Shown here: positions 18,403 through 56,465 of the stretch, piece by piece
How positions within the stretch are numbered: the first letter of the stretch is position 1
How the letters are laid out: the number at the start of each line of letters is the position of its first letter
NCBI GenBank assembly: GCA_963674945.2
Contig: CAXXWQ010000004.1
Coordinates: forward strand, 832,001 to 896,000
DNA: 64,000 nt
Source of the DNA: an uncultured Desulfosarcina sp.
Lineage (GTDB): Bacteria; Desulfobacterota; Desulfobacteria; Desulfobacterales; Desulfosarcinaceae
Direction: 5' to 3'
Position numbers and translations under genes: made by a program
Notes under the pieces: generated by a model
Seen by the model: only the letters and a program-made list of their open reading frames with translations
The model's database searches: none
What the model was told of the DNA's origin: nothing

Positions 18403-18547
18403 GGTCATATGCAACCATTGGTGAAATATGACCTTTTTGATGCATGCAACTATCTTATCAAAATTTGCAAAGCTATTAAATGAACACAATAAATCAACAT
18501 GTTGTGTGACGATTTCTCACATTTGGGTAACTGGCACAAGGATTGTA
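18403..18547 (+). promoter_or_regulatory. Sigma-54 promoter 1 with upstream tandem palindrome and IHF site
   Basis: GGTCAtatgCAACC-att-GGTGAaataTGACC at 18403-18433; perfect IHF consensus AATCAAcatgTTG at 18492-18504; TGGCAC-N5-TTGTA at 18532-18547. Confidence 0.75.
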
Positions 18548-18704
18548 TAGACATTGTTTATTAAAAACAGTGTCAACAGGCTCAAAGGCAAGTATCCTCT
18601 GCAAGCCTCACACCGTTGCCTACAAGTAGGTTCCATTCGTATCGTAAAAACGGAAATGAAGCAGAATAATTAGTCCCACCAATGTGTATTAAGGAGAAAG
18701 CGAA

Positions 18705-19202
18705 ATGAATAACCCTATTTTTAACCGCGCATCGATAATTCTCGTAATGGCAATAGTATTCATATTTATTTCGAATGCCAATGGCCAGGACAGTGGTCCA
18801 GACAATTACCGAGACGGGTATGGTTCTTCCGGGGCGATGGGCCAGAACCCCGATGACCTTATAAACTACGGCCACGGCATGATGAGATACGGTTTCCATG
18901 AAACGGGAATGCCGGGGGGAACCAACAAGTATCCTGGGTATTACTACAACTTGAGCGATGCTACCAAAAAGAAACTGATTGCCGAGCAGGAATCTTTCAT
19001 CAAGGAAACTGAAGATCTAAGGCAGACGATATACGAAAAAGAACTTTACCTGAAAGCCGAACTATCCAAGAAAGCGCCGGATAACGCCATCTCATTAAGT
19101 CTTCAGAAAAATATCTCTGAGGCCATGGGACAGTTCGAGCAACAGATGATCGTACATATCATCCGGATGAAAAACATAAGTCAGGAGGCCGAAAAAAAAT
19201 AA
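18705..19202 (+). CDS. Periplasmic Spy/CpxP/ZraP-like protein
   Basis: Signal peptide, G/M/Y-rich segment, F.KET.DLRQ.IY.K.L.L.AEL...PD. Confidence 0.75.
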   Translation: MNNPIFNRASIILVMAIVFIFISNANGQDSGPDNYRDGYGSSGAMGQNPDDLINYGHGMMRYGFHETGMPGGTNKYPGYYYNLSDATKKKLIAEQESFIKETEDLRQTIYEKELYLKAELSKKAPDNAISLSLQKNISEAMGQFEQQMIVHIIRMKNISQEAEKK

Positions 19203-19204
19203 AG

Positions 19205-20683
19205 ATGAATATTCTCCTCATTTACCCCCAGTTTCCCGATACGTTTTGGTCTTTTTCGCATGCATTGCGTTTCATCGGTAAGAAGGCGGCTTTTCCGCCA
19301 CTTGGCCTGCTCACCGTTGCGGCCCTTCTTCCGGCAACATGGTCTTTGCGCCTTGTGGACATGAACGTGAACGATATAACCGATGATGATCTTGCCTGGG
19401 CCGATATGGCTTTTCTCAGCGCCATGGCGGTCCAGCGAAAATCGACTGCCGGTATCATCGCGCGATGCCAAGGCAGGGGATTGACGATCGTAGCCGGCGG
19501 ACCGCTTTTTACGGCGGAGCCGGATGCCTTCGGGCAGGTGGACCACCTGGTTTTAGACGAGGCCGAAATGACTCTGCCGGTTTTTGTTGCAGAACTAGAA
19601 AATGGCTGTCCTCAAAAAATTTACCGGGCAAACGGCTATCCCGACGTCCACCAGACCCCCATTCCACTATGGCGCTTGATTCACATGAATCGCTATGCAT
19701 CCTTGAACATTCAGTATTCCAGAGGGTGCCCGTTCAACTGCGATTTTTGCAATATCACAAGTCTTTTCGGCAGCACGCCGCGAACAAAAGCGCCGCCTCA
19801 GGTCCTTGCGGAGTTGGATGTCATTTATCAGACCGGCTGGCGCGGCAATATCTTTTTTGTGGACGACAATTTTATCGGCAATAAAGGCTCGCTGAAGAAG
19901 CAGTTGCTCCCGGCCCTGATCGAATGGCGCAAGGACAAAAAAGGATGCGTTTTTTTTACGGAATCTTCCATCAACCTGGCCGATGACCCGGATTTGATGA
20001 CCCTGATGGCCGATGCCGGATTCGATTCCGTATTTATCGGCATCGAATCGCCGGATGAGAACAGCCTCAAGGAGTGTCACAAGGATCACAATAAAAACCG
20101 TGATATGCTGCTGGATGTAAAAAAGATACACCGCTCCGGTATGCAGGTCATGGGTGGGTTCATTGTCGGCTTCGACAGCGATACGCCCTCGATTTTTCAA
20201 CGACAGATTGATTTTATCCAGCAAAGCGGCATTGTGACGGCCATGGTCGGTATGCTTCAGGCGGCGCCCGGAACCCGTCTGTTCAATCGTCTTTTGGATG
20301 AGCGGCGTGTATGCGAAGACTTCTCCGGGGATAATGTAGACGGCCGGACCAATATTATCCCTGCCATGGGGTTGGACAACCTGATCGATGGGTACCGGGC
20401 GATTATGCGGCAGATCTATTCTCCCCGCAAATACTACCAGCGGATCAGATCCATTTTAAAAGAACTCACGGTGCCGGCGGTGACCGTTCCTATAGATTGG
20501 CAGCGATTTCTGGCGTTTTTCCGTGCCTGCCTGCGGCTGGGCGTATTGGGCAAAGAGAGATTCCAATACTGGTATCTGTTGATCTGGACCCTGGCGCGGA
20601 GGCCCAGGTTGTTACCGTTGGCAGTTACACTGTCCATCTACGGTTACCATTACCGGAGGATTTGCGAGTTGCATATCCTTTAA
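19205..20683 (+). CDS. B12-binding radical SAM protein (DUF4070, HpnP-like)
   Basis: YPQFPDTFWSF, PPLGLLTVAA, RGCPFNCDFC, FVDDNFIGN, GFIVGFDSD. Confidence 0.9.
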   Translation: MNILLIYPQFPDTFWSFSHALRFIGKKAAFPPLGLLTVAALLPATWSLRLVDMNVNDITDDDLAWADMAFLSAMAVQRKSTAGIIARCQGRGLTIVAGGPLFTAEPDAFGQVDHLVLDEAEMTLPVFVAELENGCPQKIYRANGYPDVHQTPIPLWRLIHMNRYASLNIQYSRGCPFNCDFCNITSLFGSTPRTKAPPQVLAELDVIYQTGWRGNIFFVDDNFIGNKGSLKKQLLPALIEWRKDKKGCVFFTESSINLADDPDLMTLMADAGFDSVFIGIESPDENSLKECHKDHNKNRDMLLDVKKIHRSGMQVMGGFIVGFDSDTPSIFQRQIDFIQQSGIVTAMVGMLQAAPGTRLFNRLLDERRVCEDFSGDNVDGRTNIIPAMGLDNLIDGYRAIMRQIYSPRKYYQRIRSILKELTVPAVTVPIDWQRFLAFFRACLRLGVLGKERFQYWYLLIWTLARRPRLLPLAVTLSIYGYHYRRICELHIL

Positions 20684-20779
20684 GCAAGGGAAGCAAGAAT
20701 CCGTATAGATTAAATGGTATCCGCTCTGAACGAACAAGCAACAATGAAGCTGATCGGTTCATTAATTAGGAGAAAAGTT

Positions 20780-21829
20780 ATGACTGAAGAGAATCAATCC
20801 CGGGGGGAATCCATACCGACGTTGGATGAGGTGCTGAATAAAATTCTACAGCAGTTTAAAAGATTCAAAGACGGTCCGATATACATTCTTGTTGCTGGTT
20901 TGGTAGTGGTTGTCTTATGGACCGCATGGTTCACCGTCCAACCGGAGGAGACGGGGATTGTACAGCGCTTCGGCAAGGTCATGCGCACGGCCGGTCCGGG
21001 TCTGCATTTCAAATTACCATATGGTATCGAAAAGGTCCGTCTGCTGCCCACGGCTCGGGTGCTTAAAGAAGAGTTCGGGTTTCGGACAGTCTCGGTTTCC
21101 ACCGTTCCCGGTGAAAAAACCCGCTATGATACGCGCGGTGAATATAAAGACGAGTCGCTGATGCTTACCGGCGACTTAAATGTCATCGATGTCCAGTGGA
21201 TCATCCAATATCGCATCGAAGATCCGATACGCTACCTGTTTCAGGTCCGCGACACATCGAAAACAATCCGTGACACTACCGAGGCGGTCATGCGCCGTGC
21301 GGTCGGCAACCGTCTGGGCAGCGATGTATTGACCACCGGACGGGTGGCGGTGGCCAGTGAGGCCAAAACCGAAATCCAGAAAATCCTGACAACCTATGAG
21401 TCCGGAGTGCGTCTGGTGACCGTTGAACTTCAGGACGTAACGCCGCCGGATACCGTAAAACCTGCCTTTAATGAAGTCAACGAATCGCGCCAGGACAGAG
21501 AGCGAACGATCAATAAAGCCCAGGAACAGGCCAACCGGGAAATCCCCAAAGCCCGAGGGGTGGCTACGCAAAGCATCAGCGAGGCCGAAGGTTACGCACT
21601 GGAACGCGTAAACCGGGCCCAAGGAGAGGCCACCCGTTTTGAGGCCATTTTAGGGCAATACGAACAGGCTCCGCAGGTCACGCGCCGGCGGCTGTATCTG
21701 GAGGCCATGACCGGCTTCCTGTCAGACATGAAAGGGCTCTATATTGTGGATAAGGACCAAAAGGCAATGGTGCCCTGGCTCCCATTGGAATCCGGTGCAC
21801 AACCATCAACAGAAGGGAGGCAGCCATGA
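20780..21829 (+). CDS. hflK: FtsH modulator HflK
   Basis: SPFH domain, MLTGDLN, V.PAFNEV, AEGYA. Confidence 0.9.
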   Translation: MTEENQSRGESIPTLDEVLNKILQQFKRFKDGPIYILVAGLVVVVLWTAWFTVQPEETGIVQRFGKVMRTAGPGLHFKLPYGIEKVRLLPTARVLKEEFGFRTVSVSTVPGEKTRYDTRGEYKDESLMLTGDLNVIDVQWIIQYRIEDPIRYLFQVRDTSKTIRDTTEAVMRRAVGNRLGSDVLTTGRVAVASEAKTEIQKILTTYESGVRLVTVELQDVTPPDTVKPAFNEVNESRQDRERTINKAQEQANREIPKARGVATQSISEAEGYALERVNRAQGEATRFEAILGQYEQAPQVTRRRLYLEAMTGFLSDMKGLYIVDKDQKAMVPWLPLESGAQPSTEGRQP

Positions 21830-22812
21830 AGTTTACCTTGAGAGCAGTAATCATCACGATAACGGTGGTGATCGTTATTGTACTTTATGGCGGTCTATAT
21901 ACATTGGAAGAGGGGCTGCAGGCCATTGTCGTGCAGTTTGGCCGACCAGTTGGGGAACCGGTAACCGAGGCGGGGCTGCACATGAAACTGCCCTTTGTGC
22001 AGGAGGTCCGACGATTCGAAAAGCGTCTGCTGGTCTGGGACGGTGATCCGAACCAGGTTCCCACCAAGGGGCGCGAGTTCATCTGGGTGGATACAACCGC
22101 CCGATGGCGGATTGCCGACGCGAAGAAATTTCTGGAGAATGTAGCCAGCGAAGAAGGGGCCCAGTCGCGTTTGAACGATATTCTCGATTCGGTGGTGCGC
22201 GACCAAGTGTCGAGCAGCGAACTTGTGGAACTCGTGCGTAGCGCATCGTGGGAAGTACCTGAGGGCGAGGCCCTGAAGGAGATCCCAAAGGAGCGCGAAG
22301 AGGAGCTTAAAAGGGAGATTGCCCGTGGCAGGGAGGAGATCACCCGAACGATACTGACTGAAGCACGAAAGATCATCCCGCAATACGGCATCGAACTGGT
22401 GGATGTGCGTATCAAGCGCCTGGATTACGTCGAAAGTGTCCGCGAAAAGGTCTATGAGCGCATGATCTCCGAGCGTAAACGGATCGCCGCGCAGTTTCGC
22501 TCCGAAGGTGAAGGACGCAGCGCCGAGATCCTCGGTACAATGGAAAAAGAGCTTCGCCAAATCCGCTCAACAGCCTACCGCCGGGTGCAGGAGGTCCAAG
22601 GCGAAGCCGACGCTGAGGCTACGCAAATCTATGGCCAAGCTTTCAATAAAAATCCAGAATTCTATGCTTTTTTGCGCACCCTTGAAAGCTACAAGGAGAA
22701 AACCAATATGAACTCCGTTTTGATTCTCACGACGGACAGTGATTTTTATCAATACATTAAAAACGCCGATCCAAGCAAGGTGAGGATCCCATCGGACCCT
22801 ATTCACGAGTAG
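21826..22812 (+). CDS. hflC: FtsH modulator HflC
   Basis: GIELVDVRIKR, VYERMISER..IA..FRSEG, PEFYAFLRTLESY. Confidence 0.92.
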   Translation: MKFTLRAVIITITVVIVIVLYGGLYTLEEGLQAIVVQFGRPVGEPVTEAGLHMKLPFVQEVRRFEKRLLVWDGDPNQVPTKGREFIWVDTTARWRIADAKKFLENVASEEGAQSRLNDILDSVVRDQVSSSELVELVRSASWEVPEGEALKEIPKEREEELKREIARGREEITRTILTEARKIIPQYGIELVDVRIKRLDYVESVREKVYERMISERKRIAAQFRSEGEGRSAEILGTMEKELRQIRSTAYRRVQEVQGEADAEATQIYGQAFNKNPEFYAFLRTLESYKEKTNMNSVLILTTDSDFYQYIKNADPSKVRIPSDPIHE

Positions 22813-22955
22813 ATTCGCCGCCAGCAGGAAACGTCTGGGAGTAAAACGATCTGCGGTGCGGCATTGCCGATGGCGATTACGAGGGCAAGCCCGGTTGGCT
22901 GGGTGACCGGTATTTTCATACCGGAGCGGGCAAAAACCCGTCGAAAGGAAACATC

Positions 22956-23258
22956 ATGTCAGAATACTTAGAATCCAAGGATATCAAACAATTAATGGCC
23001 GAGGCCGATGAACTGATGAAACGGATTGATGCCGATGCCATTAAAAACTTGAAAGAGGAGCATCGCCTGAAAGTTGAAACAAATGCGCAACACCTGAAAA
23101 AGATCAAATCAGCAGTTCAGGACAAGATCGAAAAGAAAAGTACCTCCAAAGAAGACAACGGTGCCGAGGGCATGCACGAAGCGTTTCAAGAGATTTCGAA
23201 GGCCATGGGTGAATTGAAAAAATATCTCTCCGGAGATCGAGCGGGCGCCGTTAAATAA
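22956..23258 (+). CDS. Hypothetical helical protein
   Basis: AAGGA RBS; lies in the operon between hflC and ftsH. Confidence 0.7.
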   Translation: MSEYLESKDIKQLMAEADELMKRIDADAIKNLKEEHRLKVETNAQHLKKIKSAVQDKIEKKSTSKEDNGAEGMHEAFQEISKAMGELKKYLSGDRAGAVK

Positions 23259-23277
23259 AAGACGGAGAAATAAATAA

Positions 23278-25236
23278 ATGCCATCCAATGGAAATAAAGA
23301 TCCGCTCGGCAACCTGACCGACAAGCTGCAATCGTTTTTCGGCTTCAAGAATCAAATGAAAAACAAGAACACGTTGCCGCCGAAGAGGCGTTTCACCATC
23401 TGGCATTTTCTCTTGGCCATGCTTTTTTTTTCCTATGTACAGCAGTTTTTCTTTTCCGCAAACGTGGAGACGATCCCGTACAGTCAGTTCAAACAGGCCA
23501 TCGCCGACGGTACCGCGGTCAAATTGATCATCGGACCGGATATTATTACTGGAACACTGAAAGGTTCCACCGATCAAGCGTTCAAGACCGTTCGAGTCGA
23601 CGATCCCGGCCTGGCGAAGGAGCTGGATGAGCGCAACATCGGTTATTCGGGACAATACGAAAATAAATTTCTGGGCGGCCTTCTCTCCTGGGTTATCCCC
23701 TTGGGCTTTTTTTTCCTAATCTGGCGATTTGCCATGAAAAAGATGGGAACGGGGATGGGGGTGATGTCTTTCAGCAAAAGCAAGGCCAAGATTTTCGCCG
23801 AGAGCGAGACCAAGGTCACGTTCGAAGACGCCGCCGGCATCGACGAAGCCAAGGAAGAACTCCATGAGGTGGTTGAATTTTTGAGCACCCCGGAAAAATC
23901 CCAGAAACTGGGAGGGCGTATACCCAAAGGGGTGCTTCTGGTTGGCCCGCCGGGAACCGGCAAAACCCTTCTTGCCAGGGCGGTGGCCGGGGAAGCCAAA
24001 GTGCCTTTCTTCAGCATCAGCGGGTCCGAGTTTGTGGAAATGTTTGTCGGTGTGGGTGCGGCCCGTGTTCGCGATCTTTTCTCCCAGGCCGCGGCGCAAG
24101 CGCCCTGTATTATCTTCATCGACGAGTTGGACGCTTTAGGCAAGGCGCGGGGCATGAATGTGATGGGCGGCCATGACGAACGCGAGCAGACGCTTAACCA
24201 GCTCCTTGTGGAGATGGATGGATTCGAAACAAATAAAGGGGTCATCATCATGGCCGCTACCAACCGGCCGGAAATTCTCGATCCGGCGTTGCTTCGGCCG
24301 GGGCGGTTCGATCGGCAGGTCCTGGTGGACCGGCCGGACATCAATGGCCGGGAAGCCATCTTGAAAATCCATTCCAAAAATGTGGTCTTGGGTCCCGAAG
24401 TCGACCTGCGCCTGATCGCCGGCCGCACCCCGGGTTTTGTGGGCGCGGACCTGGCCAACATCATCAATGAAGCCGCGCTACTGGCTGCCCGGAACAACAA
24501 GGAAATGGTCGAGCTGACGGATTTCGACGAGGCCATCGATCGGGTGGTGGCGGGGCTTCAGAAAAAGAACAGGGTAATGAGTCCCAAGGAGAAGGAAATT
24601 GTCGCCTTCCATGAGTCCGGACACGCGATCGTGGCCGAGTCTGTCGAGCATGCCGACCCGGTGCATAAGATTTCGATCATTCCCAGAGGGATAGCGGCGC
24701 TCGGCTACACCCAGCAGCAGCCGACCGAGGACCGTTATTTGATGACCCGTGCGGAGTTGCTGGATCGGTTGGCCGTCCTTTTGGGCGGTCGCGTGGCCGA
24801 AGAACTGGTATTTAACGAAATTTCCACCGGGGCACAGAATGACCTGCAACGGGCGACGGACATCGCCCGTTCCATGGTCGCGGAATATGGTATGAGCGAT
24901 CGTTTGGGCCTGGTGAGTTATGAGCGCCCGCGCCAGGCGATGTTTCTTCCGGAAGGTTTTTCTCCCGCGAAACTGTATAGTGAAGCCAAAGCCGCACAGA
25001 TCGATGAAGAGGTCACACGGTTTATCGATGAGGCTCATCAGCGTGTGCGAAAAATCCTCTCGGAACTCCGACCCGTTCTCGATGATCTGGCCCGTCTCCT
25101 TTCGCAGAATGAAAGTGTGCAGGGAGATGAACTCAGGCAAATGCTTTCAGCCGCCACACCCGGAACGGAATCTTCATTGCCCGTTGAGCCGCCTCGAGAC
25201 ATCGCCGGAAAAACGCATGAAGAAAAAAGCGATTAG
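23278..25236 (+). CDS. ftsH: ATP-dependent zinc metalloprotease FtsH
   Basis: [29 protein letters not shown]; two N-terminal TM segments. Confidence 0.97.
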
Positions 25237-25373
25237 CAGAATCCGCTTTACCCCTTCCACGGCCTCTTTCAGGTCAGATAAGGTGGTGCTACGGTCAGAA
25301 CAACCAACAACCCTGATGGCCAGAATGCGGAACTCTCCATTGGGGCAAACCAAATCCCGCAAAAACGAGGTGT

Positions 25374-25817
25374 ATGATGGCACTAATAAGATGGAATCCC
25401 TGGCGAGAAATCGAAGAAATGGCTGATCGCTATACAAAAGCGGTCGGGCAAGCTCAGACCGGCGGCCAAGAGGTCGTCGCCACAGGCGACTGGGCACCTC
25501 GGGTAGACATCGCAGAGACCGACAACGCCTTCGAGATCAAGGTGGAGCTTCCTGAAGTCAAGAAGGAGGACGTCAAAGTAACTGTTTACAATGGTGTCCT
25601 TACGCTTCGGGGGGAAAGAAAACAGGAAAAAGAAGAGCATGGGAAAAAATTCCACCGCATCGAGCGAAAATACGGGAGTTTCACCCGTAGCTTCACCTTG
25701 CCCGACAACGTCGATGAGACCGACATTAAGGCTGCGTTCAAGGATGGCATATTGAATCTCCAGATTAAAAAAACCGAGGAGTCAAAACCCAAAGCCATCG
25801 AAGTCAATGTGCAGTAA
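25374..25817 (+). CDS. Small heat-shock protein Hsp20
   Basis: WAPRVDI.E, ER.YGSF.RSF.LP, C-terminal IEV motif. Confidence 0.95.
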   Translation: MMALIRWNPWREIEEMADRYTKAVGQAQTGGQEVVATGDWAPRVDIAETDNAFEIKVELPEVKKEDVKVTVYNGVLTLRGERKQEKEEHGKKFHRIERKYGSFTRSFTLPDNVDETDIKAAFKDGILNLQIKKTEESKPKAIEVNVQ

Positions 25818-25847
25818 AAAAACGGAGGTTCCAACCACCGACTGAAT

Positions 25848-25873
25848 CTGGGAGAAGCGATCGCTTTTCCCAG
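25848..25873 (+). terminator. Palindromic hairpin after hsp20
   Basis: ctgggagaagcgatcgcttttcccag. Confidence 0.4.
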
Positions 25874-25977
25874 GCAGTTGGCCGTTCATCCGTTTTTATA
25901 GAAAATGCAGGTTTCATCCAGGGTCCGGCAAGCGATACCGGAACGCTGAGAGAAAGGGCAGTCCTGCTCGGACGTGA

Positions 25978-27153
25978 ATGATTCCAAACAATCAGATTAC
26001 CTTGCTGCAAAACGGAGAAACTTATTTTCCGGCGCTCGAGGCAGCCATCGATCGGGCGAAGCATGAAATCTATCTGGAGACCTATATCTTCGAGAATGAC
26101 ACTACCGGCCGCCGCATCGCCGAAACACTCAAACAGGCGGCCTTGCGTGGTGTAAAAACCCATGTGCTGATGGATGGATTCGGTTCAATCGGTTTTCCTA
26201 AAACCATGATCGATAGCCTCGAGGCGGCCGGCGTAAGGGTGCTGAAATTCCGGCCCAAGACATCCCCATGGACGCTGCGGCGGCGACGGTTGCGTCGATT
26301 GCATCGCAAAATTGTGGTCGTGGACCGGATGATCGCATTTGTCGGAGGCATCAATATTATCGATTATATGGACATTCATGGTCAAACATCGACGCGCTTC
26401 GATTACGCGGTAAGCGTGGAAGGGCCGCTGGTAGAACAAATACATGAATCCGCTCGCCGGGTTTGGTCGCGCGTGGCCTGGACCCGCCTGCCTCCGGGTT
26501 GGGATGAGGACAATGACAGACATGTTCCTTCATCTGGACCCAAGGGCCGGATGCGCTCGGCTTTTCTGGTGCGCAACAACATCCGCCACCGACGCGATAT
26601 CGAAGATGCCTATCTTCAGGCGATCGATCAGGCGCGATACGAAATTATTCTTGCCAATGCCTATTTTTTGCCCGGATTGAATTTCCGGCATGCGCTTTTG
26701 GATGCGGCCGGGCGGGGTGTCCGGGTGGTTCTTCTGTTGCAGGGAAGGATGGATCACCCATTGCTGCATTCTGCCTCGCATGCCTTATATGGCAGTTTTC
26801 TCGACGCCGGCATCGAGATCCATGAATACCACAAAAGCCTGATGCACGCCAAAGTCGCCGTGATCGATGAGCATTGGGCCACGGTGGGATCTTCAAATCT
26901 CGACCCTTTCAGCCTGCTGCTTTCACTTGAAGCAAATGTTGTCGTTGACGATGAAAGTTTTGCTACCAAATTAAAACATAGCCTGGAACAGGCCATCAAG
27001 ATGGGTGCGCGGCGGATAAGTGAGGGTTGCTGGAGAACGAAATCCATCAAACTGCGTCTGGTGAGTTGGCTAAGTTATGGCGTGGTGCGATTCATGATCG
27101 GAATCGCCGGGTACGCCCCGGGGAAAAAACCGGGGCAAGTAAGGCGGAGATAA
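25978..27153 (+). CDS. clsB: Cardiolipin synthase ClsB-like phospholipase D
   Basis: Two HKD motifs (HRKIVVVD, HAKVAVID); no N-terminal TM anchor. Confidence 0.9.
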   Translation: MIPNNQITLLQNGETYFPALEAAIDRAKHEIYLETYIFENDTTGRRIAETLKQAALRGVKTHVLMDGFGSIGFPKTMIDSLEAAGVRVLKFRPKTSPWTLRRRRLRRLHRKIVVVDRMIAFVGGINIIDYMDIHGQTSTRFDYAVSVEGPLVEQIHESARRVWSRVAWTRLPPGWDEDNDRHVPSSGPKGRMRSAFLVRNNIRHRRDIEDAYLQAIDQARYEIILANAYFLPGLNFRHALLDAAGRGVRVVLLLQGRMDHPLLHSASHALYGSFLDAGIEIHEYHKSLMHAKVAVIDEHWATVGSSNLDPFSLLLSLEANVVVDDESFATKLKHSLEQAIKMGARRISEGCWRTKSIKLRLVSWLSYGVVRFMIGIAGYAPGKKPGQVRRR

Positions 27154-27178
27154 ACGACATTATGCTGACTCCGGAAAC

Positions 27179-28462
27179 ATGATGAAAACCTACAAAGATA
27201 TAAAATCGGCAGCGACCATCGATGCCATCATCGACTATGTTGAACCACTGCTTGATATTCGTTTCAAGCGTGTTAAAAAAAATCGGTATAATGCCCCATG
27301 CCCGTTCCACGCCGACACCAAAGAGAATTTCATGGTGTACGTCAATAAAGAGGATGAGGTCCGTTTCCATTGTTTCGGTGCCTGTAAGGGCGATTGGGAC
27401 ATTACCGACCTGATCATGCTGCGGAATAAATATCCGTTCCAAAGGGCGCAGCAGGTTTGGGCCGAGCATCTGGGGTTCGTGGATTTCACGTTTGATGATG
27501 GCCGCAGCCCTTCTATTCCTGAACCTGATGAAACACCGGAGCCCGATGAACCGATTTGTTTTGTCGAACCGAAAAAACTTGACCAACAGATGGTTGCCAC
27601 CCTGGACGATGCCGCCACCTTCTACCATAAACTGTTGATGTCAAATGAGGAGCGGTTCAGGACTGTTTGGGATTATCTTGCCCGCCGGGGTGTCGGAAAA
27701 GAGACCATCCGCGCGTTCAACATCGGCTACGCTCCGCCATACAGCGATGAAAAGCACCATGGCCGGTCACTCATCACCGATATCTTGCCACGGGTTGAAA
27801 CGGATCCTGGTATTTTCAATGCATTCTCGGATGCTGGATTGGTCAGATTCTTGAACGATGGATCTGTGAAGGGATACGGATACTATTGCCGGCAGATCGA
27901 TTTCAGACGGAAAGATCCGTTCTCAAGAAATTACGGTGATTATTTCGCCGGAAAAATTGTGTTTCCTATATATGATGCAGCCGCCGATGTGAGCGGAATG
28001 GTCGGTAGGTGCCTGGAAGATAGGGGCGTTCGCTGGCTCAAGCACCAGGCCAGAGAAGTTCCGCTGTCTGCCAAAAGCCGGCTTTACGGCATCGAAAAGG
28101 CCGCGCCGTATATCCGGAAGTACCGGACGATCATCCTGGTGGAGGGCCTTTTTGATTACTTTGACTTTTACAATCTGCTCCAAGGCCAGGACAAACTGGT
28201 GGTGGTATCGACATTGGGTTCCTATCTCACTCCCCAAGCGGCGACCATTCTCAAAAGCCTTGAGATCGAGAACTATATTGCCGCCTACGACTGGGACGAA
28301 CTCGGCAGAAACGGCATCGAACGGACGGCGGTCCAATCAGGCGGGTGGGTCTATTACCTTGGCGGTCCGGCAGACGGTCAGGACCCCTACGACAAACTGG
28401 AGCCGGTGGTCAGCGCCATCAGCGGATTTCCCCTGAAACAGATTCGGACTGAAGCGCCATGA
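27179..28462 (+). CDS. DnaG-like primase (CHC2 zinc finger plus TOPRIM), lacking the helicase-binding C-terminus
   Basis: CPFH...FHCFGAC, YL..RG, F.IGYAP, VEGLFD, YDWD, DP.D. Confidence 0.82.
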   Translation: MMKTYKDIKSAATIDAIIDYVEPLLDIRFKRVKKNRYNAPCPFHADTKENFMVYVNKEDEVRFHCFGACKGDWDITDLIMLRNKYPFQRAQQVWAEHLGFVDFTFDDGRSPSIPEPDETPEPDEPICFVEPKKLDQQMVATLDDAATFYHKLLMSNEERFRTVWDYLARRGVGKETIRAFNIGYAPPYSDEKHHGRSLITDILPRVETDPGIFNAFSDAGLVRFLNDGSVKGYGYYCRQIDFRRKDPFSRNYGDYFAGKIVFPIYDAAADVSGMVGRCLEDRGVRWLKHQAREVPLSAKSRLYGIEKAAPYIRKYRTIILVEGLFDYFDFYNLLQGQDKLVVVSTLGSYLTPQAATILKSLEIENYIAAYDWDELGRNGIERTAVQSGGWVYYLGGPADGQDPYDKLEPVVSAISGFPLKQIRTEAP

Positions 28463-28693
28463 AAAAAGACATCTTTCGGCCGGCACCGGAAATAAATACG
28501 GGTGATCATCGCAATGGGCAACGACGACCCATGTGCATTCATAAATGGAAGAATAGATTGAAACTCAAGGAAATTGAGAGGATTTATGTGGTTTATCATT
28601 GTAATTCTCGTTAGCCTTGCGATTTATCTTATGCTTCAGTAGTCAACATCAACAGCGATGATAGCGATGTCATTGTCTATGAGGACATAAATT

Positions 28694-30841
28694 ATGGGCA
28701 ACACACAACCTGCACAACCATTGTTCCCCCATTTGCCGGAACGCCTTGCAGGCCTGGAAGAACTGGCGGAAAATCTCTGGTGGAGCTGGAATCCGGGCGC
28801 CCGGGTGCTCTTCAAGGCACTAGACCGTCAGGCCTGGAAGGAGAGCGGTCACAACCCGGACAAGATGCTCAGGGAGTTACCCCGGGAACTTCTGGAAAAA
28901 GCCAGGGCCGATGCCGATTATCTCCGTAGGTTTGATGATGTGATGGCTGTGTTCGGTCGCACCATGCAAAAAAAAGCGTGCGACTTGCTATCGCCTTTTT
29001 CACTGGACCACAAGCTTGCCGTGGCCTACTTTTCCGCTGAATACGGTCTGCATCGATCCTTACCCTTCTATGCCGGCGGATTGGGTTTTCTGGCTGGCGA
29101 TTACCTGAAAGAATGCAGTGATTTAAATGTGCCGCTGGTGGCGGTGGGCTTCATGTACCCGGACGGCTATCTACGGCAACAGGTCCGGGATGACGGCTGG
29201 CAGGCGGATCTGGTGGAGCCCCTCGACCGTGAGGCCGCCCCGATTTCCAGGGTGAGGGACAAGAATGGACGGCAACTCGTCGTAACGGTCCCGCTGACCG
29301 ATCCGCCGATCCATGTCGCGGTGTGGAAGGTCGCCGTCGGGCGTGTTTCCCTTTACCTGATGGACACGGATGTCGAAACCAATGATCCCTGGAGCAGAGG
29401 GATCACCGCCCGGCTCTACATCGGCGATCTCGAGCAGCGCCTACGCCAGGAAATTGTCCTGGGGATCGGGGGGCCGGCGGTACTCAAGACGTTGGGCATC
29501 GACCATTACCTCCTGCACCTGAACGAAGGTCATGCAGCATTCGCGATTCTTGAACGTATCCGGGAATATATGCAAACCGGCAGTGACTTTGCCGCCGCTC
29601 GCCGAAATGTCATCGATTCCACCATCTTTACCACGCACACCCCGGTGCCGGCCGGTCACGATGTGTTTCCCTTTCAATTGATCGGCAAGTATTTTGATTC
29701 CTACTGGCCCGCCTTAGGCCTCGATCGCGACGCGTTTATCAACATGGGGATTCATCCGGAAAAGCCGGCTGCCGGATTCAATATGACGGCTTTCGCCCTG
29801 CGTCTGTCCGGCTGCCGGAACGCGGTGAGCAAACGACACGCCGAGGTCTCACGGAAGATGTGGCGAAGCCTCTGGCCCGACCTGCCGGAGGATCAGGTCC
29901 CCATCGATTTCGTTACCAACGGTGTCCATGTGCCCACCTGGATCGAACCGAAAATCAAGCTTCTTCTGGACACACACCTCGGTGTCGATTGGCTGGACAA
30001 GCATGACGATCCGGCCATATGGCAGCGCATCGACACCATCCCCGACAGCGAGCTGTGGAAAACGCATTACTGGCTCAAGGTGAAACTGATCGATGCCGTT
30101 CGGGAGCGCGCCCGTCTTCGCTGGGCCGATGGCGGGGGCAGCTCATCCGTCATGCTTGCCGGAGGCGCTTTCCTCGATCCATCGGTCCTGACGATTGGCT
30201 TTGCACGACGGTTCGCCACCTACAAGAGAGCCTTGCTGATCTTTCAGGATCTGGAGCGCCTGAAAAAACATTTCAAGGACCGCTGGCGCCCCATCCAGAT
30301 CATCTTCGCCGGCAAAGCCCATCCAGCCGACGACCCCGGGAAGGTTGTTCTGCAAAACCTTATAAACCTGTCGCGCGATCCCCGGATTGGAGGCCGGGTC
30401 GCTTTTGTGGAGGATTACGGCGAGCAGCTGGCCCAGTACCTGGTGCATGGGGTGGATGTATGGCTGAACACGCCGTTGCCTCCGTTTGAAGCTTGCGGGA
30501 CGAGCGGCATGAAGGCGGGCCTGAACGGCGTGCCCCATCTAAGCCTGCTGGACGGCTGGTGGGAAGAAGGGTTTAACGGGAAAAATGGCTGGGCCGTGGA
30601 GCACGATGCAAATGCCGAGAATCCGGATGGCCATGATGCCGAAAAGATCTACCGCCTTCTGGAAGAACAAATCATCCCGCTCTATTACAAGGTGTCGGAT
30701 AACGGAATTCCCCTTGAATGGGTCCGGCTGATGAAGGAAACCGTTAAAAGTGCGGCTTCCGGTTTCTCTGCACGCCGGATGGTCAAGCAATACATTGAAA
30801 AGTTTTATTCCAGCAGTATTCAACATGCGCTGGAGGATTAG
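28694..30841 (+). CDS. glgP: Alpha-glucan phosphorylase
   Basis: NLWWSW, YAGGLGFLAGD, HLNEGH, FARRFATYKR, EACGTSGMKA. Confidence 0.95.
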   Translation: MGNTQPAQPLFPHLPERLAGLEELAENLWWSWNPGARVLFKALDRQAWKESGHNPDKMLRELPRELLEKARADADYLRRFDDVMAVFGRTMQKKACDLLSPFSLDHKLAVAYFSAEYGLHRSLPFYAGGLGFLAGDYLKECSDLNVPLVAVGFMYPDGYLRQQVRDDGWQADLVEPLDREAAPISRVRDKNGRQLVVTVPLTDPPIHVAVWKVAVGRVSLYLMDTDVETNDPWSRGITARLYIGDLEQRLRQEIVLGIGGPAVLKTLGIDHYLLHLNEGHAAFAILERIREYMQTGSDFAAARRNVIDSTIFTTHTPVPAGHDVFPFQLIGKYFDSYWPALGLDRDAFINMGIHPEKPAAGFNMTAFALRLSGCRNAVSKRHAEVSRKMWRSLWPDLPEDQVPIDFVTNGVHVPTWIEPKIKLLLDTHLGVDWLDKHDDPAIWQRIDTIPDSELWKTHYWLKVKLIDAVRERARLRWADGGGSSSVMLAGGAFLDPSVLTIGFARRFATYKRALLIFQDLERLKKHFKDRWRPIQIIFAGKAHPADDPGKVVLQNLINLSRDPRIGGRVAFVEDYGEQLAQYLVHGVDVWLNTPLPPFEACGTSGMKAGLNGVPHLSLLDGWWEEGFNGKNGWAVEHDANAENPDGHDAEKIYRLLEEQIIPLYYKVSDNGIPLEWVRLMKETVKSAASGFSARRMVKQYIEKFYSSSIQHALED

Positions 30842-31078
30842 ACCGTGTCCGCTTAGCAAAGATAGAAAAACCATGCCCGCTGAATAAGAAATCGATGTCT
30901 TGAAATTGGATAACGCCTGTTGTTATGATCAACGTGGGTGACATCAGGCGTAACAAAAAACGGTAGCGCTTCTTTCATCATCGTTTCAGCGGCAAGGATA
31001 GTGTCTATCCAGAAATGGCCAATTTCTTGAACAACGGCTACGGGCAGCTACTTCAGACACCATCCACGAGGACGCGGC

Positions 31079-34072
31079 ATGCCAACGAAGAAAAACAGCA
31101 CTATCCCAATAAAAGCCGCAGCAAAGGCAAAAACCGGCCGGGCAAAACGTGCACCGAATAGTCCGGCTGTAAACAAACGGTTTCCGGTGGTCGGCCTGGG
31201 TGCATCCGCCGGCGGGCTGGACGCGCTGAGATCTTTTTTTCACGAGGTGACGGCGAACAGCGGCATGGCCTTTATCGTGGTGGTCCATATGGCCCCCAAA
31301 CAGCCAAGCCTGATGCCCGAGCTTTTGCAGAAAGTCACCCCGGTGCCGGTTTCCGTCGCCCAGGACGGGCAGATCCTTGCACCGGATCATATCTACGTCA
31401 TCGCACCGGACAAGGAGATCAGTGTATTCAAAGGCAAGATCCAGCTACTGGATATTTTAGATAAACGCGCGACCCTGCCCATCGATGCCTTCCTCAAATC
31501 GCTGGCCAATGACCAGGGGGCCCACGCGGCGGCGGTCATTTTATCGGGCACCGGCACGGACGGCACCCTCGGCGCAAAGGCGATTCAAGCCAACGGCGGC
31601 CTGGTCCTGGTTCAATCGGAAGCGTCGGCCGGTTATGACGGCATGCCCCGCAGCGCCATCGGCAGCGGCGCGGCGGATATCATCGCGCCTCCCGAACAGA
31701 TGCCCCAAAAGCTCAGCCACTATTTTACGCACGCCAAGAAGGCGTTCGTCAAACAGCCTGCCGCCCCCGCTGCCATAAAGGATCAACTGGAGTGGCTGGA
31801 CAAGATCTTTGCCATTTTGCGATCCCGGATCGGACATGATTTTTCCCAATACAAGGTTAATACGTTGCTGCGCCGCATCGATCGCCGCATGGGACTGAAT
31901 CAGATCATGAGCCATGAGCAATATGTGCGCTATCTGCGCGAAAATCCCGCCGAGGTGGAGGCGTTGTTCCGGGAGCTGTTGATCGGGGTGACCCAATTTT
32001 TCCGCGACGCCGACTCGTTCAATCTTCTTAAAACCAACATCCTGCCTGAACTGTTGGGCCGCTTGAAAGAAAACGACACGCTGCGGGCCTGGATTCCGGG
32101 CTGCTCCACAGGCGAAGAGGTCTATTCTCTGGCCATGGTGATCCGCGAGACCCTGGACACAACCCCCAAACCGATCAACCTGCAACTGTTCGGCACGGAC
32201 ATTGACGACGCGGCCATCGACAAAGCCCGCCAAGGGCTTTATCCGGCCAGTATCGCCGCGGATGTCGGTGGCCATCGCCTGAAACGGTTTTTCACCAAAG
32301 AGGGTGATTATTTTCGCATCCGCAAAGAGATCAGAGACATTGCCGTTTTCTCGGTCCAAAACCTGATCAAGGATCCGCCTTTTTCACGACTCAACCTGCT
32401 GTGCTGCCGCAACCTGTTGATCTATCTGGACAGTGATGCCCAACGAAAAATTTTGCCCTTGTTCCATTACACCCTGGCGAGCGAAGGCATCCTCGTATTG
32501 GGATCTTCCGAAACCATCGGTGGGTTTTCCAATCTTTTCAAGACGCTGGATAAGAAATGGAAGATTTTTCAACGGCGCGAGGTGCCCCTGGCCCTGCGTC
32601 TGCAGGTTGATTTCCCCAGCGGCCCGACCACAGTTGGCTCAGGTGTGGGCGTGGGGCCGGCGTCCGCGCCGGAGACGCCCAAAATCAATGTCGCCCAGAT
32701 CACCCAAAAGGCCATTCTGGAACAGTTTGCCCCCACGGCCATTCTCATCGATGCCGAAGGTAATATTTTGCATGTCCAGGGCCGCACCGGAAAATATCTG
32801 GAAACCCCCAGCGGGCCGCCCACGCGCAACATCCTGGATATGACCCGCCAGGGGCTGCGCATCGAACTCTCCTCGGCCATCCGGGCCGCCCAATCGTCCA
32901 GCCAACCGGTGATCCGAAAAAAAATAGCCGTGAAAACCAACGGCGACGTTCAATGGGTCGATCTGCATGTCTGTCCCCAAAATGCATCAAAGGCCCTTGC
33001 CGGGGCGTTGCTGGTGGTGTTCGAGGATGTCGTGACCGCCACAGACGCCGATGGTCCACATGACGATCGAAACAACTTGCACCAAGAGACCCACCGCATC
33101 GTGGAACTGGAGAGAGAACTGCAGAGCACCCGCGAAAGCCATCAGACCACCGTCGAGGAATTGGAGTCTACCAACGAGGAGCTCAAATCCATTAACGAAG
33201 AGATGCAGTCTTCCAATGAAGAGTTCCAATCCACCAATGAGGAGCTGGAATCTTCCAGAGAGGAACTCCAGTCATTGAACGAGGAGCTGCAGACGGTCAA
33301 CGCCGAGCTGCAAAGCAAGGTGGAAGAGCTGTCGGCGGTCCACGACGACATACGCAATTTGCTCAACAGCACGGAGATCGCCACCATTTTCGTGGACAAC
33401 AGCATGCGGGTCAAGCGATTCACACCCGGAGCGACGGCCATCATCAATCTGATTCAGACCGACGTTGGGCGCCCGCTAGGGCACGTGGCCACCAATTTGT
33501 CCTATAAGGGGCTGATGGACGATCTGGGTGATGTGATAAAGAATCTCACCCCCAGGGAGGCCGAGGTGCGGACCATGGAAGGCGCATGGTATAAGATGCA
33601 CATTCTCCCCTATCGCACCATGGACAATCGCATCGACGGCGCGGTGCTCACCTTTACCGCCATCAATGAGCAGAAACAGGCCCAACAGGTGCTGAGTTCC
33701 GCCAAAATAGAAATGGAGCAGGCCTGGCTTTTGATACGCAAAATTTTCGATATGAATTCCGATCCACTGGTCGTGCTTGACCGTGACGGCAAAATGGTCA
33801 TGGCCAATTCGGCGTTTGCGAATTTGATGAAAATTCGACCTGAAACAGTTAAAAACATGGATATCTTCACCATCGACAACCGCCCGCTGGATCGGACCGA
33901 CCAGAAGGCCGAATTGAAAGCGGCTCTGGAAAAAGGAGAAAATTTCCAAATCGACCCGGGCAAGATACCCCCATCGGAGGAAACAGATGCATACCGAATG
34001 ATAGGCCAGGTCATTCGTGCGGACGATGATTCGCCCTACAGTATTCTTCTGCGGTTTGCAAAGGAACGCTGA
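31079..34072 (+). CDS. CheB-CheR fusion with coiled coil and PAS domains (CheBR)
   Basis: CheB GASAGG/H/GTGTDG; CheR VTQFFRD, GCSTGEEVYS, CRNLLIY; repeated NEE heptads; PAS domains. Confidence 0.93.
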   Translation: MPTKKNSTIPIKAAAKAKTGRAKRAPNSPAVNKRFPVVGLGASAGGLDALRSFFHEVTANSGMAFIVVVHMAPKQPSLMPELLQKVTPVPVSVAQDGQILAPDHIYVIAPDKEISVFKGKIQLLDILDKRATLPIDAFLKSLANDQGAHAAAVILSGTGTDGTLGAKAIQANGGLVLVQSEASAGYDGMPRSAIGSGAADIIAPPEQMPQKLSHYFTHAKKAFVKQPAAPAAIKDQLEWLDKIFAILRSRIGHDFSQYKVNTLLRRIDRRMGLNQIMSHEQYVRYLRENPAEVEALFRELLIGVTQFFRDADSFNLLKTNILPELLGRLKENDTLRAWIPGCSTGEEVYSLAMVIRETLDTTPKPINLQLFGTDIDDAAIDKARQGLYPASIAADVGGHRLKRFFTKEGDYFRIRKEIRDIAVFSVQNLIKDPPFSRLNLLCCRNLLIYLDSDAQRKILPLFHYTLASEGILVLGSSETIGGFSNLFKTLDKKWKIFQRREVPLALRLQVDFPSGPTTVGSGVGVGPASAPETPKINVAQITQKAILEQFAPTAILIDAEGNILHVQGRTGKYLETPSGPPTRNILDMTRQGLRIELSSAIRAAQSSSQPVIRKKIAVKTNGDVQWVDLHVCPQNASKALAGALLVVFEDVVTATDADGPHDDRNNLHQETHRIVELERELQSTRESHQTTVEELESTNEELKSINEEMQSSNEEFQSTNEELESSREELQSLNEELQTVNAELQSKVEELSAVHDDIRNLLNSTEIATIFVDNSMRVKRFTPGATAIINLIQTDVGRPLGHVATNLSYKGLMDDLGDVIKNLTPREAEVRTMEGAWYKMHILPYRTMDNRIDGAVLTFTAINEQKQAQQVLSSAKIEMEQAWLLIRKIFDMNSDPLVVLDRDGKMVMANSAFANLMKIRPETVKNMDIFTIDNRPLDRTDQKAELKAALEKGENFQIDPGKIPPSEETDAYRMIGQVIRADDDSPYSILLRFAKER

Positions 34073-34085
34073 AAGGAAGTAAAAA

Positions 34086-38684: not shown

Positions 38685-38734
38685 TTGACCATTATTCTTA
38701 CTTTACTCAATTATGCATCGTTCGCAAAAGGAGA

Positions 38735-39148: not shown

Positions 39149-39178
39149 ACCACGATTTTCGAGAAAGGAAGGAAAGCC

Positions 39179-39379
39179 ATGAACTGGGATCAAATCAAAG
39201 GAAACTGGAAGCAGGTCAAAGGAGTTGTCAGGGAGCGGTGGGGAAAACTCACCGACGACGACGCTGACGTCATTGCAGGAAAACGTGATATTCTCTTGGG
39301 AAAAATACAAGAAAAGCAGGGCGTCGCACGCGAAGAGGCTGAAAAAGAACTCAAGGCCTGGGAAGATTCGTTGAAGTAG
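39179..39379 (+). CDS. CsbD/YjbJ-family stress protein
   Basis: MNWDQIKGNWKQVKG...WGKLTDDD...GKIQEK.G. Confidence 0.95.
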   Translation: MNWDQIKGNWKQVKGVVRERWGKLTDDDADVIAGKRDILLGKIQEKQGVAREEAEKELKAWEDSLK

Positions 39380-39406
39380 TTAAACAAAATTATTCTGGAG
39401 GATGCC

Positions 39407-53882: not shown

Positions 53883-53886
53883 AGCT

Positions 53887-54741
53887 ATGTTAATCGATTG
53901 GTTCACGGTCGGAGCACAGACGCTCAACTTTCTCATTCTGGTGTGGTTGATGAAGCGCTTTCTTTACAAACCGATTCTCCATGCCATTGATGAGCGCGAG
54001 AAGCGAATAGCCGAGGAACTCGCGAACGCCGATAAGAAAAAGGCCGAAGCCCAAAAGGAGAGAGATGCATTCAGGCACAAAAACGAAACGTTCGACCAGC
54101 AACGGGCGGCGCTCTTGAGCAAAGCGACGGACGAGGCCAAAGCCGAAGGTCAGCGACTCCTCGACGAAGCGCGCCAGGCCGCTGACGCCTTGAGCGCCAA
54201 GAGAATGGAAACGTTGCGAAACGACGCAGGCAACTTACGTCAGGCCATCAGCCGGCGCACCCAGCAGGAAGTATTTGCCATCGCGCGAAAGGCGCTGACG
54301 GGTCTTGCCACGGCAAGTTTGGAAGAACGCCTGGGCGAGGTGTTTACTCGTCGCTTGAGAGAGATGGACGGCCAGGCCAAAGCGGGCCTCGCCGAGGACC
54401 TTAAGACCGCAACCGACCCCGCGTGCGTGCGCAGTGCGTTTGACCTGCCTGAGGAGCAACGCGCGGCGATACAAAATGCGCTCAACGAAACCTTCTCGGC
54501 TGAAATCCATGTCCGGTTCGAGACCGCGCCGGACCTGATCAGCGGCATTGAACTCAGCACCAATGGACAAAAAGTGGCGTGGAGCATCGCTGATTATCTG
54601 GCATCCCTGGAAAAGGGAGTCGACGAACTTTTGAAGGAGAAGGACAAAGCTGAGATCAAAGCCGATCCTGAGCCTGAAGCCACGGCTGAATCTAAGCCTG
54701 AGGCAAAAGCCGAGCCTGAGCCCGAAATGGAAAGCCAATGA
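53887..54741 (+). CDS. atpF: N-ATPase b subunit (long, delta-fused type)
   Basis: [27 protein letters not shown]. Confidence 0.92.
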
Positions 54742-56276
54742 ATATGGAACCCGAGAGCCTCCAAAACATTTTTAACAGCGCATTTGCCGAAATAAGCCAG
54801 GTGCGGGAAGCATTCACACCGCAACTGACCCCACGGGAGGTGGGCACGATTACTAGTGTCGCCACCGGCATCGCCAAGGTATCGGGTCTTCCCGGCGTGG
54901 GTTTTGATGAATTGGTGAGGTTTCCGGGCGATGTGCTCGGCATTGCGTTCAACCTGGACGCGGACGAAATCGGCGTCGTTCTGCTCGGTGAATACTGGCA
55001 TCTGCACGCGGGCGATGAGGTTCAGCGCACGGGCCGGGTCATGGACGTGGCCGTGGGCGATGGATTGCTGGGGCGCGTCGTCGACCCCCTCGGTCGGTCA
55101 CTTGATGGCAACGGGCCGGTGGCCGCAAACAAGCGCCTGCCCGTCGAACGCCCCGCCGCGCCCATCATGGACCGCGCACCCGTCACGGTGCCGCTCCAGA
55201 CCGGCATCAAAGTCATCGATGCGCTCATTCCCGTTGGGCGCGGCCAACGCGAGTTGATTCTCGGCGACCGCCAGACGGGCAAGACCGCCATTGCGATCGA
55301 CACCATCCTGAATCAGCGCGGTAAGGATGTCCTGTGCGTTTATTGCGCCATCGGTCAGCGCGCGTCCGCCGTCGCCAAGGCCGTGGCAACCTTGCGGGAA
55401 AAGGGAGCCATGGATTACACCGTCCTCGTCGTAACCGAGGGCAACGACCCGCCGGGTCTGGCTTACATCGCGCCCTACGTTGCCACCAGCATCGCGGAGG
55501 CTTTCACGGAAGCGGGCCGGGATGTGCTGATCGTCTATGACGACCTCACCCATCACGCGCGCGCCTACCGCGAACTGTCTCTCTTGCTGCGCCGTCCACC
55601 CGGTCGCGAAGCGTTTCCCGGCGACATCTTTTATATCCACTCGCGGCTGCTCGAACGTGCGACGCACTTGCGCCGGGAGCGCGCGGGGGGATCGCTAACC
55701 GCCCTGCCCATCATCGAGACCGAAGCACAGAACATTTCCGCCTATATTCCGACCAACCTGATCTCCATCACGGACGGACAGATCTACCTCTCGCCGTCGC
55801 TGTTCGAATTGGGCGTGCTGCCCGCAGTTGATGTCGGCAAATCCGTTTCGCGGGTCGGCGGCAAGGCCCAGCGCGCGGCCTACCGCGCGGTGGCCGGCGA
55901 CCTCAAGCTCGGCTACGCCCAGTTCGAGGAACTCGAAACCTTTTCCCGGTTCGGCGCCCGTCTGGATGAAGAGACCCGCAAGATTATCGAGCACGGACGG
56001 CGAATTCGCGCCTGCCTCAAACAGCCGGAATTCTCCCCGGTGGCCGTGCCTGCGCAAATCGCCGTGCTGCTGGCATTGACCGCCGAACTCTTCGACCGCG
56101 TGCCGCTTGACCGGATGCCGGACGCCGAGGAGGCCCTGCGCGCAGCGGCGGCGGATATACCGCCGAAGGTGTGCGAGCGATTGGACACCGCCGATAAATT
56201 GAGCGACGAGGATCGTGAAACGATTATCCAAATCGCCCGCCAATCGCTCGCGCGCTTCCAGCCCAAGGCAGACTGA
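54738..56276 (+). CDS. atpA: N-ATPase alpha subunit; native last 7 codons displaced by an insertion
   Basis: [28 protein letters not shown]. Confidence 0.97.
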
Positions 56277-56317
56277 CCTCGATAGCATTGGCACGATATT
56301 TGAGAAGACAGAAAAAT

Positions 56318-56465
56318 GATCATATAAGACCAATGATTAAATATGACACTTTTTATGTGGCGGTTAATGACAGCCCTATATATGTTATTTTAACTGATTA
56401 TTCATATAAATCAAAATGGTGGGGGACGAGACGCTAAATGTTGGGAACCTGGCACAAAAATTGAG
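56318..56465 (+). promoter_or_regulatory. Sigma-54 promoter 3 with upstream tandem palindrome and IHF-like site
   Basis: GATCAtataAGACC-aat-GATTAaataTGACA at 56318-56348; AATCAAaatgGTG at 56409; TGGCAC-N5-TTGAG at 56450-56465. Confidence 0.7.

Follow-up and report, generated by a model that had tools for sequence, protein, structure and literature searches.

At sigma-54 promoters of the looped kind, integration host factor (IHF) bends the DNA between an upstream activating sequence (UAS) and the promoter. The closed sigma-54 polymerase is held at the -24/-12 element and is opened by ATP hydrolysis in the activator (PMC5095919). In the XylR/Pu, DmpR/Po and PspF/pspA systems two activator sites lie about 100 bp upstream, with IHF between them and the -24/-12 element and an AAA+ protein as the activator. 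In Desulfovibrio vulgaris, OrpR is described as a one-component regulator of the PAS-AAA+-helix-turn-helix (HTH) type that works with IHF and sigma-54 and is encoded beside its targets (PMC8359166). The layout studied here is of the same kind. It was noticed in a 64,000-nucleotide stretch of DNA from an uncultured Desulfosarcina sp. (the window, C4:832001-896000 of a 7.08-Mb genome in four contigs), where a first-pass annotation had read three intergenic tandem palindromes as the enhancers of sigma-54 promoters that are looped by IHF and served by one enhancer-binding protein (EBP), and the genes behind them as a general-stress regulon of the lineage. We find that the three sites are half of a set of six modules on one accessory island, and that they are probably promoters switched on by a PAS-domain EBP encoded on the same island.

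The three tandem motifs were re-read at 18403, 37776 and 56318 exactly as claimed. TGGCAC follows at 18532, 37905 and 56450, which is 99, 99 and 102 bp past the end of the motif, and all three boxes read CTGGCACAA-n3-TTG. The T tracts are found where they had been reported, and the IHF consensus, situated at -40, -39 and -41 from the TGG, has 0, 3 and 1 mismatches in sites 1, 2 and 3, in agreement with the earlier reading. The operator is best described as a single 31-bp inverted repeat, GGTCATATnTGACC-n3-GGTCAnATATGACC, in which the outer ATAT is conserved too. The start positions in Table 1 were predicted from the usual spacing between the -12 element and the transcription start.

A matrix made from the three sites was scanned over the genome. 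In the 7.08 Mb, five matches of at least 20 bits were found, three of which are the training sites, and each of ten column-shuffled control matrices gave 0-1 such matches. The two new sites at this level (sites 4 and 5) lie 10 and 22 kb past the window end, and site 6 is a weaker match. A matrix of 27 sites has exactly six genome matches of at least 12 bits, all at C4:850403-923346 (73 kb), so that the modules are confined to C4:850-924 kb. All six have a sigma-54-type box 98-101 bp downstream, where the chance of a box at the required position is about 0.0007 per site. The IHF consensus with at most one mismatch is present at -40/-41 in five of the six, and the TGGCAC-N5-TTG spacing is kept in every box, although two have a variant of TGGCAC; the base after the TTG is A or T. 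When the six sites are compared, 18-27 of the 31 UAS bases and 9-17 of the 17 box bases agree, whereas the linkers align at 32-61%. The divergence of the linkers next to the preserved UAS and box points to selection on the elements themselves. A second complete sigma-54-type box (TGGCAC-N5-TTGA) is situated at window 56288-56304, directly past atpA and 29 bp upstream of site 3; it has no matrix match upstream at the usual distance, and is possibly a remnant or an orphan promoter.

The same geometry is observed outside this genome. The pattern is present in 22 of 40 relatives (reversed control, 0 of 40), and 21 of the 24 matches in relatives have a box at 96-102 bp. For a metagenome set chosen on the motif alone (at least 123 stretches, with 125 sites among the matches listed), a strict box is found at 98-103 bp in 82 of the 125 listed sites, compared with 6 of 2108 control windows. 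Among the metagenome matches listed, 61 of 77 distinct promoters have an IHF consensus with at most one mismatch at -40 to -42. The spacer is 3 nt long in 83 cases and 4 nt long in five, and no other length from 0 to 15 occurs in 205 partly overlapping loci collected by protein or by region. In three loci (L341, L343 and L345, position 1501) boxes lie about 100 bp from one UAS on both sides, an arrangement which suggests that one enhancer may serve two divergent promoters.

As the first-pass annotation had said of GAFTGA-type activators, the window contains no PF00158 match; the genome has 67, and one rpoN. The candidate activator, P0001, is a protein of 493 amino acids encoded on the island 26 kb outside the window, and its stop codon is followed 7 bp later by site 6. 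It consists of a PAS domain, a coiled coil, an AAA+ domain (PF00158) with the loop GAFTNA and a Fis-type HTH (HTH_8). Among its orthologues the loop reads GAFTGA, GAFTDA or GAFTNA, and the closest named relative, from a Desulfosarcina metagenome-assembled genome, is 86% identical. The PAS region has no sequence relative in the Protein Data Bank, and a fold search with its model returned a generic PAS fold: the match to the PAS domain of Rv1364c (Z 14.0, root mean square deviation 3.7, 136 residues aligned) is within 1 Z of those to CPS_1291, NifL and LOV domains. The AAA+ part of the model is of low confidence (mean pLDDT 59). A Kai-linked activator was also considered, and no KaiB match was found in the genome.

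The motif and one clade of activators are inherited together. In 110 EBP loci, the motif was found within 750 bp downstream of 22 of the 24 close orthologues of P0001, seven of the 22 sites having belonged to the training set and one of the two misses having no flank, and in none of the 86 loci of more distant EBPs. A site is present in the locus of 21 of a further 28 top orthologues from the class. The motif pattern occurs in 56 of 200 class genomes (reversed control, 6) and the C-terminal part of the activator in 54, with both in 44, the motif only in 12, the activator only in 10 and neither in 134. Within single families the corresponding counts are 14, 6, 3 and 16 in one and 4, 1, 1 and 15 in another. 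Several of the motif-only matches that were checked arise by chance according to the matrix, and in at least three of the activator-only genomes a site does exist that escaped the strict pattern. Both motif and activator are absent from G004 and G015, two single-contig genomes of the genus. In the phylum beyond the order, 3 of 291 genomes show the pattern, and matrix and box mark two of these as real.

In a midpoint-rooted FastTree of 191 non-duplicate AAA-HTH sequences covering the query, four clade loci having been picked on the motif, all 46 motif-adjacent EBPs fall in one clade of 54 with a support of 0.985. Their recognition helix is [DEN]RSTLRAR in 45 of the 46, and [DEN]RST[LF]RAR in 53 of the 54 clade members; of the EBPs listed for this genome, P0001 alone has the former. 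In place of the PAS of P0001, some orthologues have a membrane-linked PAS, a different PAS or an N terminus that resembles a receiver. Activators of the same clade with different N-terminal sensors keep the adjacent site at L126, L127, L325, L329 and L314, and the last has an altered helix and a site beside it nonetheless. By this co-occurrence, P0001 is strongly indicated as the likely cognate activator of the six promoters.

Activation would then proceed as follows. Two activator dimers would bind the two 14-bp units, whose centres are 17 bp apart, and nucleate an AAA+ ring. IHF would bend the DNA at about -41, so that the ring could reach the sigma-54 polymerase waiting at -24/-12 and open the promoter by ATP hydrolysis. 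By analogy with OrpR, the PAS domain might keep the activator inactive before an intracellular signal is received, which is the weaker part of the proposal; judged from the targets, the best guess for the signal would be stress of the energy or redox type, or the onset of stationary phase. The six promoters would then drive a programme for survival, made up of small membrane and periplasmic stress proteins, protein quality control by FtsH, Hsp20 and GroEL, cardiolipin, and energy from glycogen and glycolysis, and it would take over the job of RpoS or SigB in strains that carry the island.

Several observations weigh against these assignments. The odds ratio of 49 calculated from the class genomes overstates independence, as the genomes are related. 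No site was found in the 2.2 kb scanned for 8 of the 54 clade members, or in the locus of 7 of the 28 further orthologues, and four drafts among the 40 relatives (G005, G021, G024 and G026) as well as G288 have the motif with no activator found. The strict box fails at 43 of the 125 listed metagenome sites, many of which show a near-match at the right place. The -12 element of the six sites and of loci L139-L261 is mostly TTGA and not the consensus TTGC, which in D. vulgaris is given as tTGCt (PMC4641369). The listed metagenome promoters have A after the TTG in 66 cases, C in 13 and T in three; C is never found there in the six sites of this genome, and it follows the TTG in 47 of the genome's 97 intergenic boxes. 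The N-terminal sensor varies among the orthologues, so no single signal can be assumed. The five drafts, and the many PF00158 matches in the genome, would also suit a different binder of the repeat (another of the roughly 60 EBPs, the PAS-LuxR regulator encoded at 34086-35609, or a Crp/Fnr-type factor), P0001 being a mere neighbour; the 5-4-5 geometry of the repeat resembles FNR sites, which have this spacing. We consider this improbable, because the motif and one EBP clade go together from genome to genome and also inside single families, and the site stays beside the activator gene even after its sensor domain has been swapped. The PAS-LuxR regulator was ruled out as the binder, as its gene and the motif do not go together from island to island, and no blast-clustered homologue of it is present in the fetched regions of G010, G018 and G237. 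Neither LuxR nor Crp/Fnr factors are known to activate sigma-54. It is more improbable still that the repeats are what remains of a promoter cassette that was duplicated, or of a small mobile element, without separate selection. They do lie on one island that is flanked by transposases and integrases and contains duplicated genes, but the linkers have diverged around a preserved UAS, IHF site and box, the geometry is constant across many families, and a single UAS serves two divergent boxes in the three loci described above.

The same activator and promoters could instead form a specific metabolic switch, for example one that would mobilise glycogen and drive glycolysis and the N-ATPase on a failure of sulfate respiration or an influx of oxygen, the stress genes riding along. 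For this speaks the sugar metabolism of the island, which holds glycogen phosphorylase, two PfkB, a class I aldolase, two GapN-like proteins, Pgm, two Pyk and PtsP/PtsI besides the N-ATPase, two GT4 and two GH130 genes. The gene pyk lies behind site 5, the listed metagenome loci most often begin with a gene for an ABM protein and not for CsbD, and no CsbD match is found in 39 of the 66 system-positive genomes, a figure that counts against a stress programme as well, as do the 14 of 134 negative genomes that have one. Nevertheless we regard such a switch as unlikely. CsbD is four times as frequent in the positive genomes (27 of 66), and the motif lies within 1.5 kb upstream of CsbD in 6 of 18 loci of positive genomes, compared with 0 of 11 loci of negative genomes. 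The glycolytic genes are not in all six islands that were compared, whereas FtsH, ABM, GT4 and GH130 are broadly common to them. In the 11 negative loci no sister motif was apparent upstream of CsbD, there being no matrix match and no promoter convincing by eye. CsbD is thus enriched in the system and not tied to it.

These comparisons strongly support the description as sigma-54 promoters with one EBP and IHF looping, and they put a name to the activator. The idea that the lineage runs a general-stress regulon does not hold lineage-wide: the sites are on one accessory island, and the pattern is found in the 56 of 200 class genomes mentioned and in 5 of 300 genomes of the phylum. Stress-type gene content was confirmed, but three of the six promoters lead into metabolic or envelope genes, namely pyk-groEL, Fe-S ATPases and glycosyltransferases. 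Markers of SigB, RpoS and EcfG regulons include CsbD/YjbJ, OsmY-like BON proteins, the lmo0937 family, YtxH, ClsB, Transgly_assoc and Usp, whereas HflKC-FtsH and Hsp20 are more typically heat-shock than SigB or RpoS genes. In Listeria, a SigB promoter is reported for csbD (PMC8066629). The marker genes CsbD, OsmY/BON, YtxH, lmo0937 and ClsB are all present here. The genome has seven Sigma70_r2 matches, which are one of 658 amino acids and RpoD size, one RpoH-like, FliA and four of the extracytoplasmic function (ECF) type, among which an EcfG-like member is possible. No match to RpoS or SigB was found among the seven, with the 658-residue protein outside the NCBIfam scan. On three counts the system stands apart from a general-stress response: it has no stress sigma factor, it is not genome-wide, and the lineage does not have it as a core trait. 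What emerges is a sigma-54 regulon of stress-survival type that belongs to an accessory island and occurs in part of a Desulfobacterales-like order; stress may induce it.

Table 1. Elements of the six modules, the activator gene and the genes behind the sites (positions in the window unless prefixed with C4)
Feature	Position	Strand	Remarks
Site 1 tandem UAS (31-bp inverted repeat)	18403..18433	+	45.5 bits
Site 1 IHF consensus	18492..18504	+	0 mismatches
Site 1 sigma-54 -24/-12 box	18531..18547	+	predicted +1 near 18558
Genes after site 1	18705..35609	+	predicted transcript extent; Spy/CpxP-like (weak Metal_resist match), B12-radical SAM, HflK/HflC-like, 100-aa protein, FtsH, Hsp20, ClsB, DnaG-like, glycogen phosphorylase, CheB-CheR-PAS, PAS-LuxR
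Intrinsic-terminator-like hairpin, strong	37699..37739	+	18 pairs, T tract
Site 2 tandem UAS	37776..37806	+	45.6 bits
Site 2 degenerate IHF position	37866..37878	+	3 mismatches
Site 2 sigma-54 box	37904..37920	+	predicted +1 near 37931
Genes after site 2	38198..40858	+	CsbD, lmo0937, BON remnant, BON/OsmY-like, CsbD/YjbJ, OmpA-domain protein
CsbD	38198-38377	+	
lmo0937 family	38428-38577	+	
BON/OsmY-like	38741-39148	+	
CsbD/YjbJ	39179-39379	+	
Site 3 tandem UAS	56318..56348	+	34.1 bits
Site 3 IHF consensus	56409..56421	+	1 mismatch
Site 3 sigma-54 box	56449..56465	+	predicted +1 near 56476
Genes after site 3	56562..63803	+	29-aa membrane peptide, YtxH, 92-aa protein, AI-2E transporter, ATP synthase gamma, DUF2254, 133-aa protein, Kup
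Site 4	C4:905771		beyond window end; predicted +1 near C4:905928; leads into two MinD/4Fe-4S ATPases
Site 5	C4:917979		beyond window end; predicted +1 near C4:918136; leads into pyruvate kinase and GroEL
P0001 (candidate activator)	C4:921858-923339		493 aa
Site 6	C4:923346		beyond window end; predicted +1 near C4:923502; leads into ABM, Transgly_assoc, two GT4 and two GH130 genes

The gene calls made for the window hold: there are two CsbD, an lmo0937-family protein, a BON/OsmY-like protein, YtxH, two SPFH proteins (HflK/C-like), FtsH, Hsp20 and ClsB. The only CsbD and BON matches of the genome are those behind site 2, and the hairpin upstream would shield this site from transcription entering from the left. 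A truncated BON remnant (window 38580-38684) lies between the lmo0937-family gene and the intact BON gene, and G010 and G023 have a 104-aa BON-cluster gene at this place. Scans for sigma-70 promoters and terminators were near the shuffle level, so the ends of the operons are not fixed by them; the membership of HflKC-FtsH and Hsp20, 2-7 kb from site 1, is deduced from the operon arrangement, and transcription that starts at site 3 may be held back in part by a weak hairpin (56699-56716). The N-ATPase operon (window 50287-59911) is split: site 3 and four genes separate the end of atpA, at 56276, from the gamma subunit at 59015, which may depend on the site 3 promoter.

The island extends over about 85 kb (C4:848-933 kb), and 51 of its 53 open reading frames (ORFs) of at least 150 amino acids have the same orientation. 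Transposases and tyrosine recombinases border it, and the flank DNA has a lower GC content (0.46-0.47 versus 0.52). Besides the sugar genes, it carries small stress genes (CsbD twice, the lmo0937 family, BON, YtxH, Transgly_assoc, Usp and ABM), quality-control and lipid genes (HflK/C-like, FtsH, Hsp20, GroEL, CbpA/CbpM-like and ClsB) and the transporters NhaA and Kup. Five relatives have matching blocks with a shuffled gene order and 2-10 sites each. Contigs of relatives in a salt-marsh metatranscriptome (X1, share of words 0.06) cover csbD, lmo0937, BON, ABM and GT4; the comparison was made with window 37000-42000 and the activator region, and with assembled contigs, which give neither start, strand nor level.

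Some further features of the island and its surroundings were observed. Transposases or integrases abound in both flanks (window 1-15500 and C4:933-960 kb), of which the left one has genes for RRM, cold-shock-like, DEAD-box and KamA-like radical SAM proteins. The GapN-like, Pyk, PfkB, HlyIII/TrhA and 133-aa proteins are duplicated at C4:895879-919908, pointing to internal duplication or to the merger of two islands. In G009 (C1:6426703-6472089), about 29 kb of island with four sites and the activator is tandemly doubled, which could be an assembly feature. A short DnaG-like protein with a zinc ribbon and a Toprim domain (window 27179-28462) is encoded between clsB and glycogen phosphorylase; the gene keeps this position in G010 and G023, and a homologue is present in the G009 island. 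At window 31079-35609 a CheB-CheR-PAS fusion without an output domain is followed by the PAS-LuxR regulator, and the fusion also occurs in the G009 and G023 islands. Its PAS as a partner of the activator's PAS was considered and is unsupported, with only 26% identity over 68 residues. The PAS-GGDEF protein at window 41286-42197 has a PAS 54% identical to that of the activator, of which the genome holds just two further copies including this one; judged from this similarity, cyclic di-GMP synthesis may respond to the signal of the activator.

The mechanism proposed here is classical, which limits the surprise, and the operator and regulon are new in the literature searched. No description of the motif or regulon was found in the full-text literature, in which few subscription papers are covered. 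In a survey of sigma-54 across bacteria, Desulfosarcina comes up only with its number of EBPs, and CsbD and FtsH are absent from the main text (PMC12316311). For abundant sediment sulfate reducers without RpoS or SigB, the analysis names an activator, defines its putative operator precisely, predicts six start sites and supplies a rule by which genomes can be scanned, and it assigns a motif and regulon to one of the roughly 60 uncharacterised EBPs in such genomes. The system differs from XylR/Pu, DmpR/Po and PspF/pspA in its new 31-bp operator, in having six promoters on one island, in a -12 element that is mostly TTGA, and in its targets and sensor.

Among the named activators, FhlA is the best NCBIfam match of P0001, over the AAA+ and HTH parts, but the score is below the cut-off (388 versus 830 bits). 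The N-terminal domains of FhlA are GAF domains, whereas P0001 has a PAS and no GAF by Pfam, and its operator is different. OrpR was ruled out as the identity of P0001 by the PAS and the motif: the PAS of OrpR has three conserved Cys for a [4Fe-4S] cluster, residues 1-125 of P0001 contain none, and the OrpR site as given is GGGCGYRTTTTGCGCCC, with a regulon of two operons (PMC8359166), so that the putative operator of P0001 is another one. DVU3305 of D. vulgaris is likewise a sigma-54-dependent activator, with a general stress assignment and UspA-type targets, but it is described as a response regulator with a kinase and a Lon-response regulator partner and with two operons (PMC3333781, PMC4641369). 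A word search of the supplementary site table of D. vulgaris EBPs found GGTCA twice, both in rows of DVU2394, and neither is the 31-bp palindrome. Six promoters are more than the one to four operons typical of D. vulgaris EBPs as summarised in PMC4641369.

The island is similar to the tLST (a stress-tolerance locus that is transmissible), an accessory island with FtsH, a small heat-shock protein, cardiolipin synthase and a diguanylate cyclase, which is described as constitutive in an account that, as far as consulted, mentions no sigma-54 activator (PMC8290217). In contrast to it, no ClpG-sized disaggregase, HdeD, thioredoxin or KefB is found among the annotated ORFs of our island. With the SigB, RpoS and EcfG responses the island shares marker genes, and it differs from them in the lack of a dedicated stress sigma factor, in its putative control by an ATP-driven sigma-54 activator, and in being island-local and patchy where they are genome-wide and core. 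A portable general stress response in the island-carrying Desulfobacterales without RpoS or SigB, made up of one activator clade with a fixed helix, the 31-bp operator, a TTGA promoter subclass and swapped sensors (cytoplasmic PAS, membrane-linked PAS or receiver), is a tentative reading that we hold at somewhat under even chances. If true, it would be a fourth general-stress architecture beside RpoS, SigB and EcfG, and one that moves as an island.

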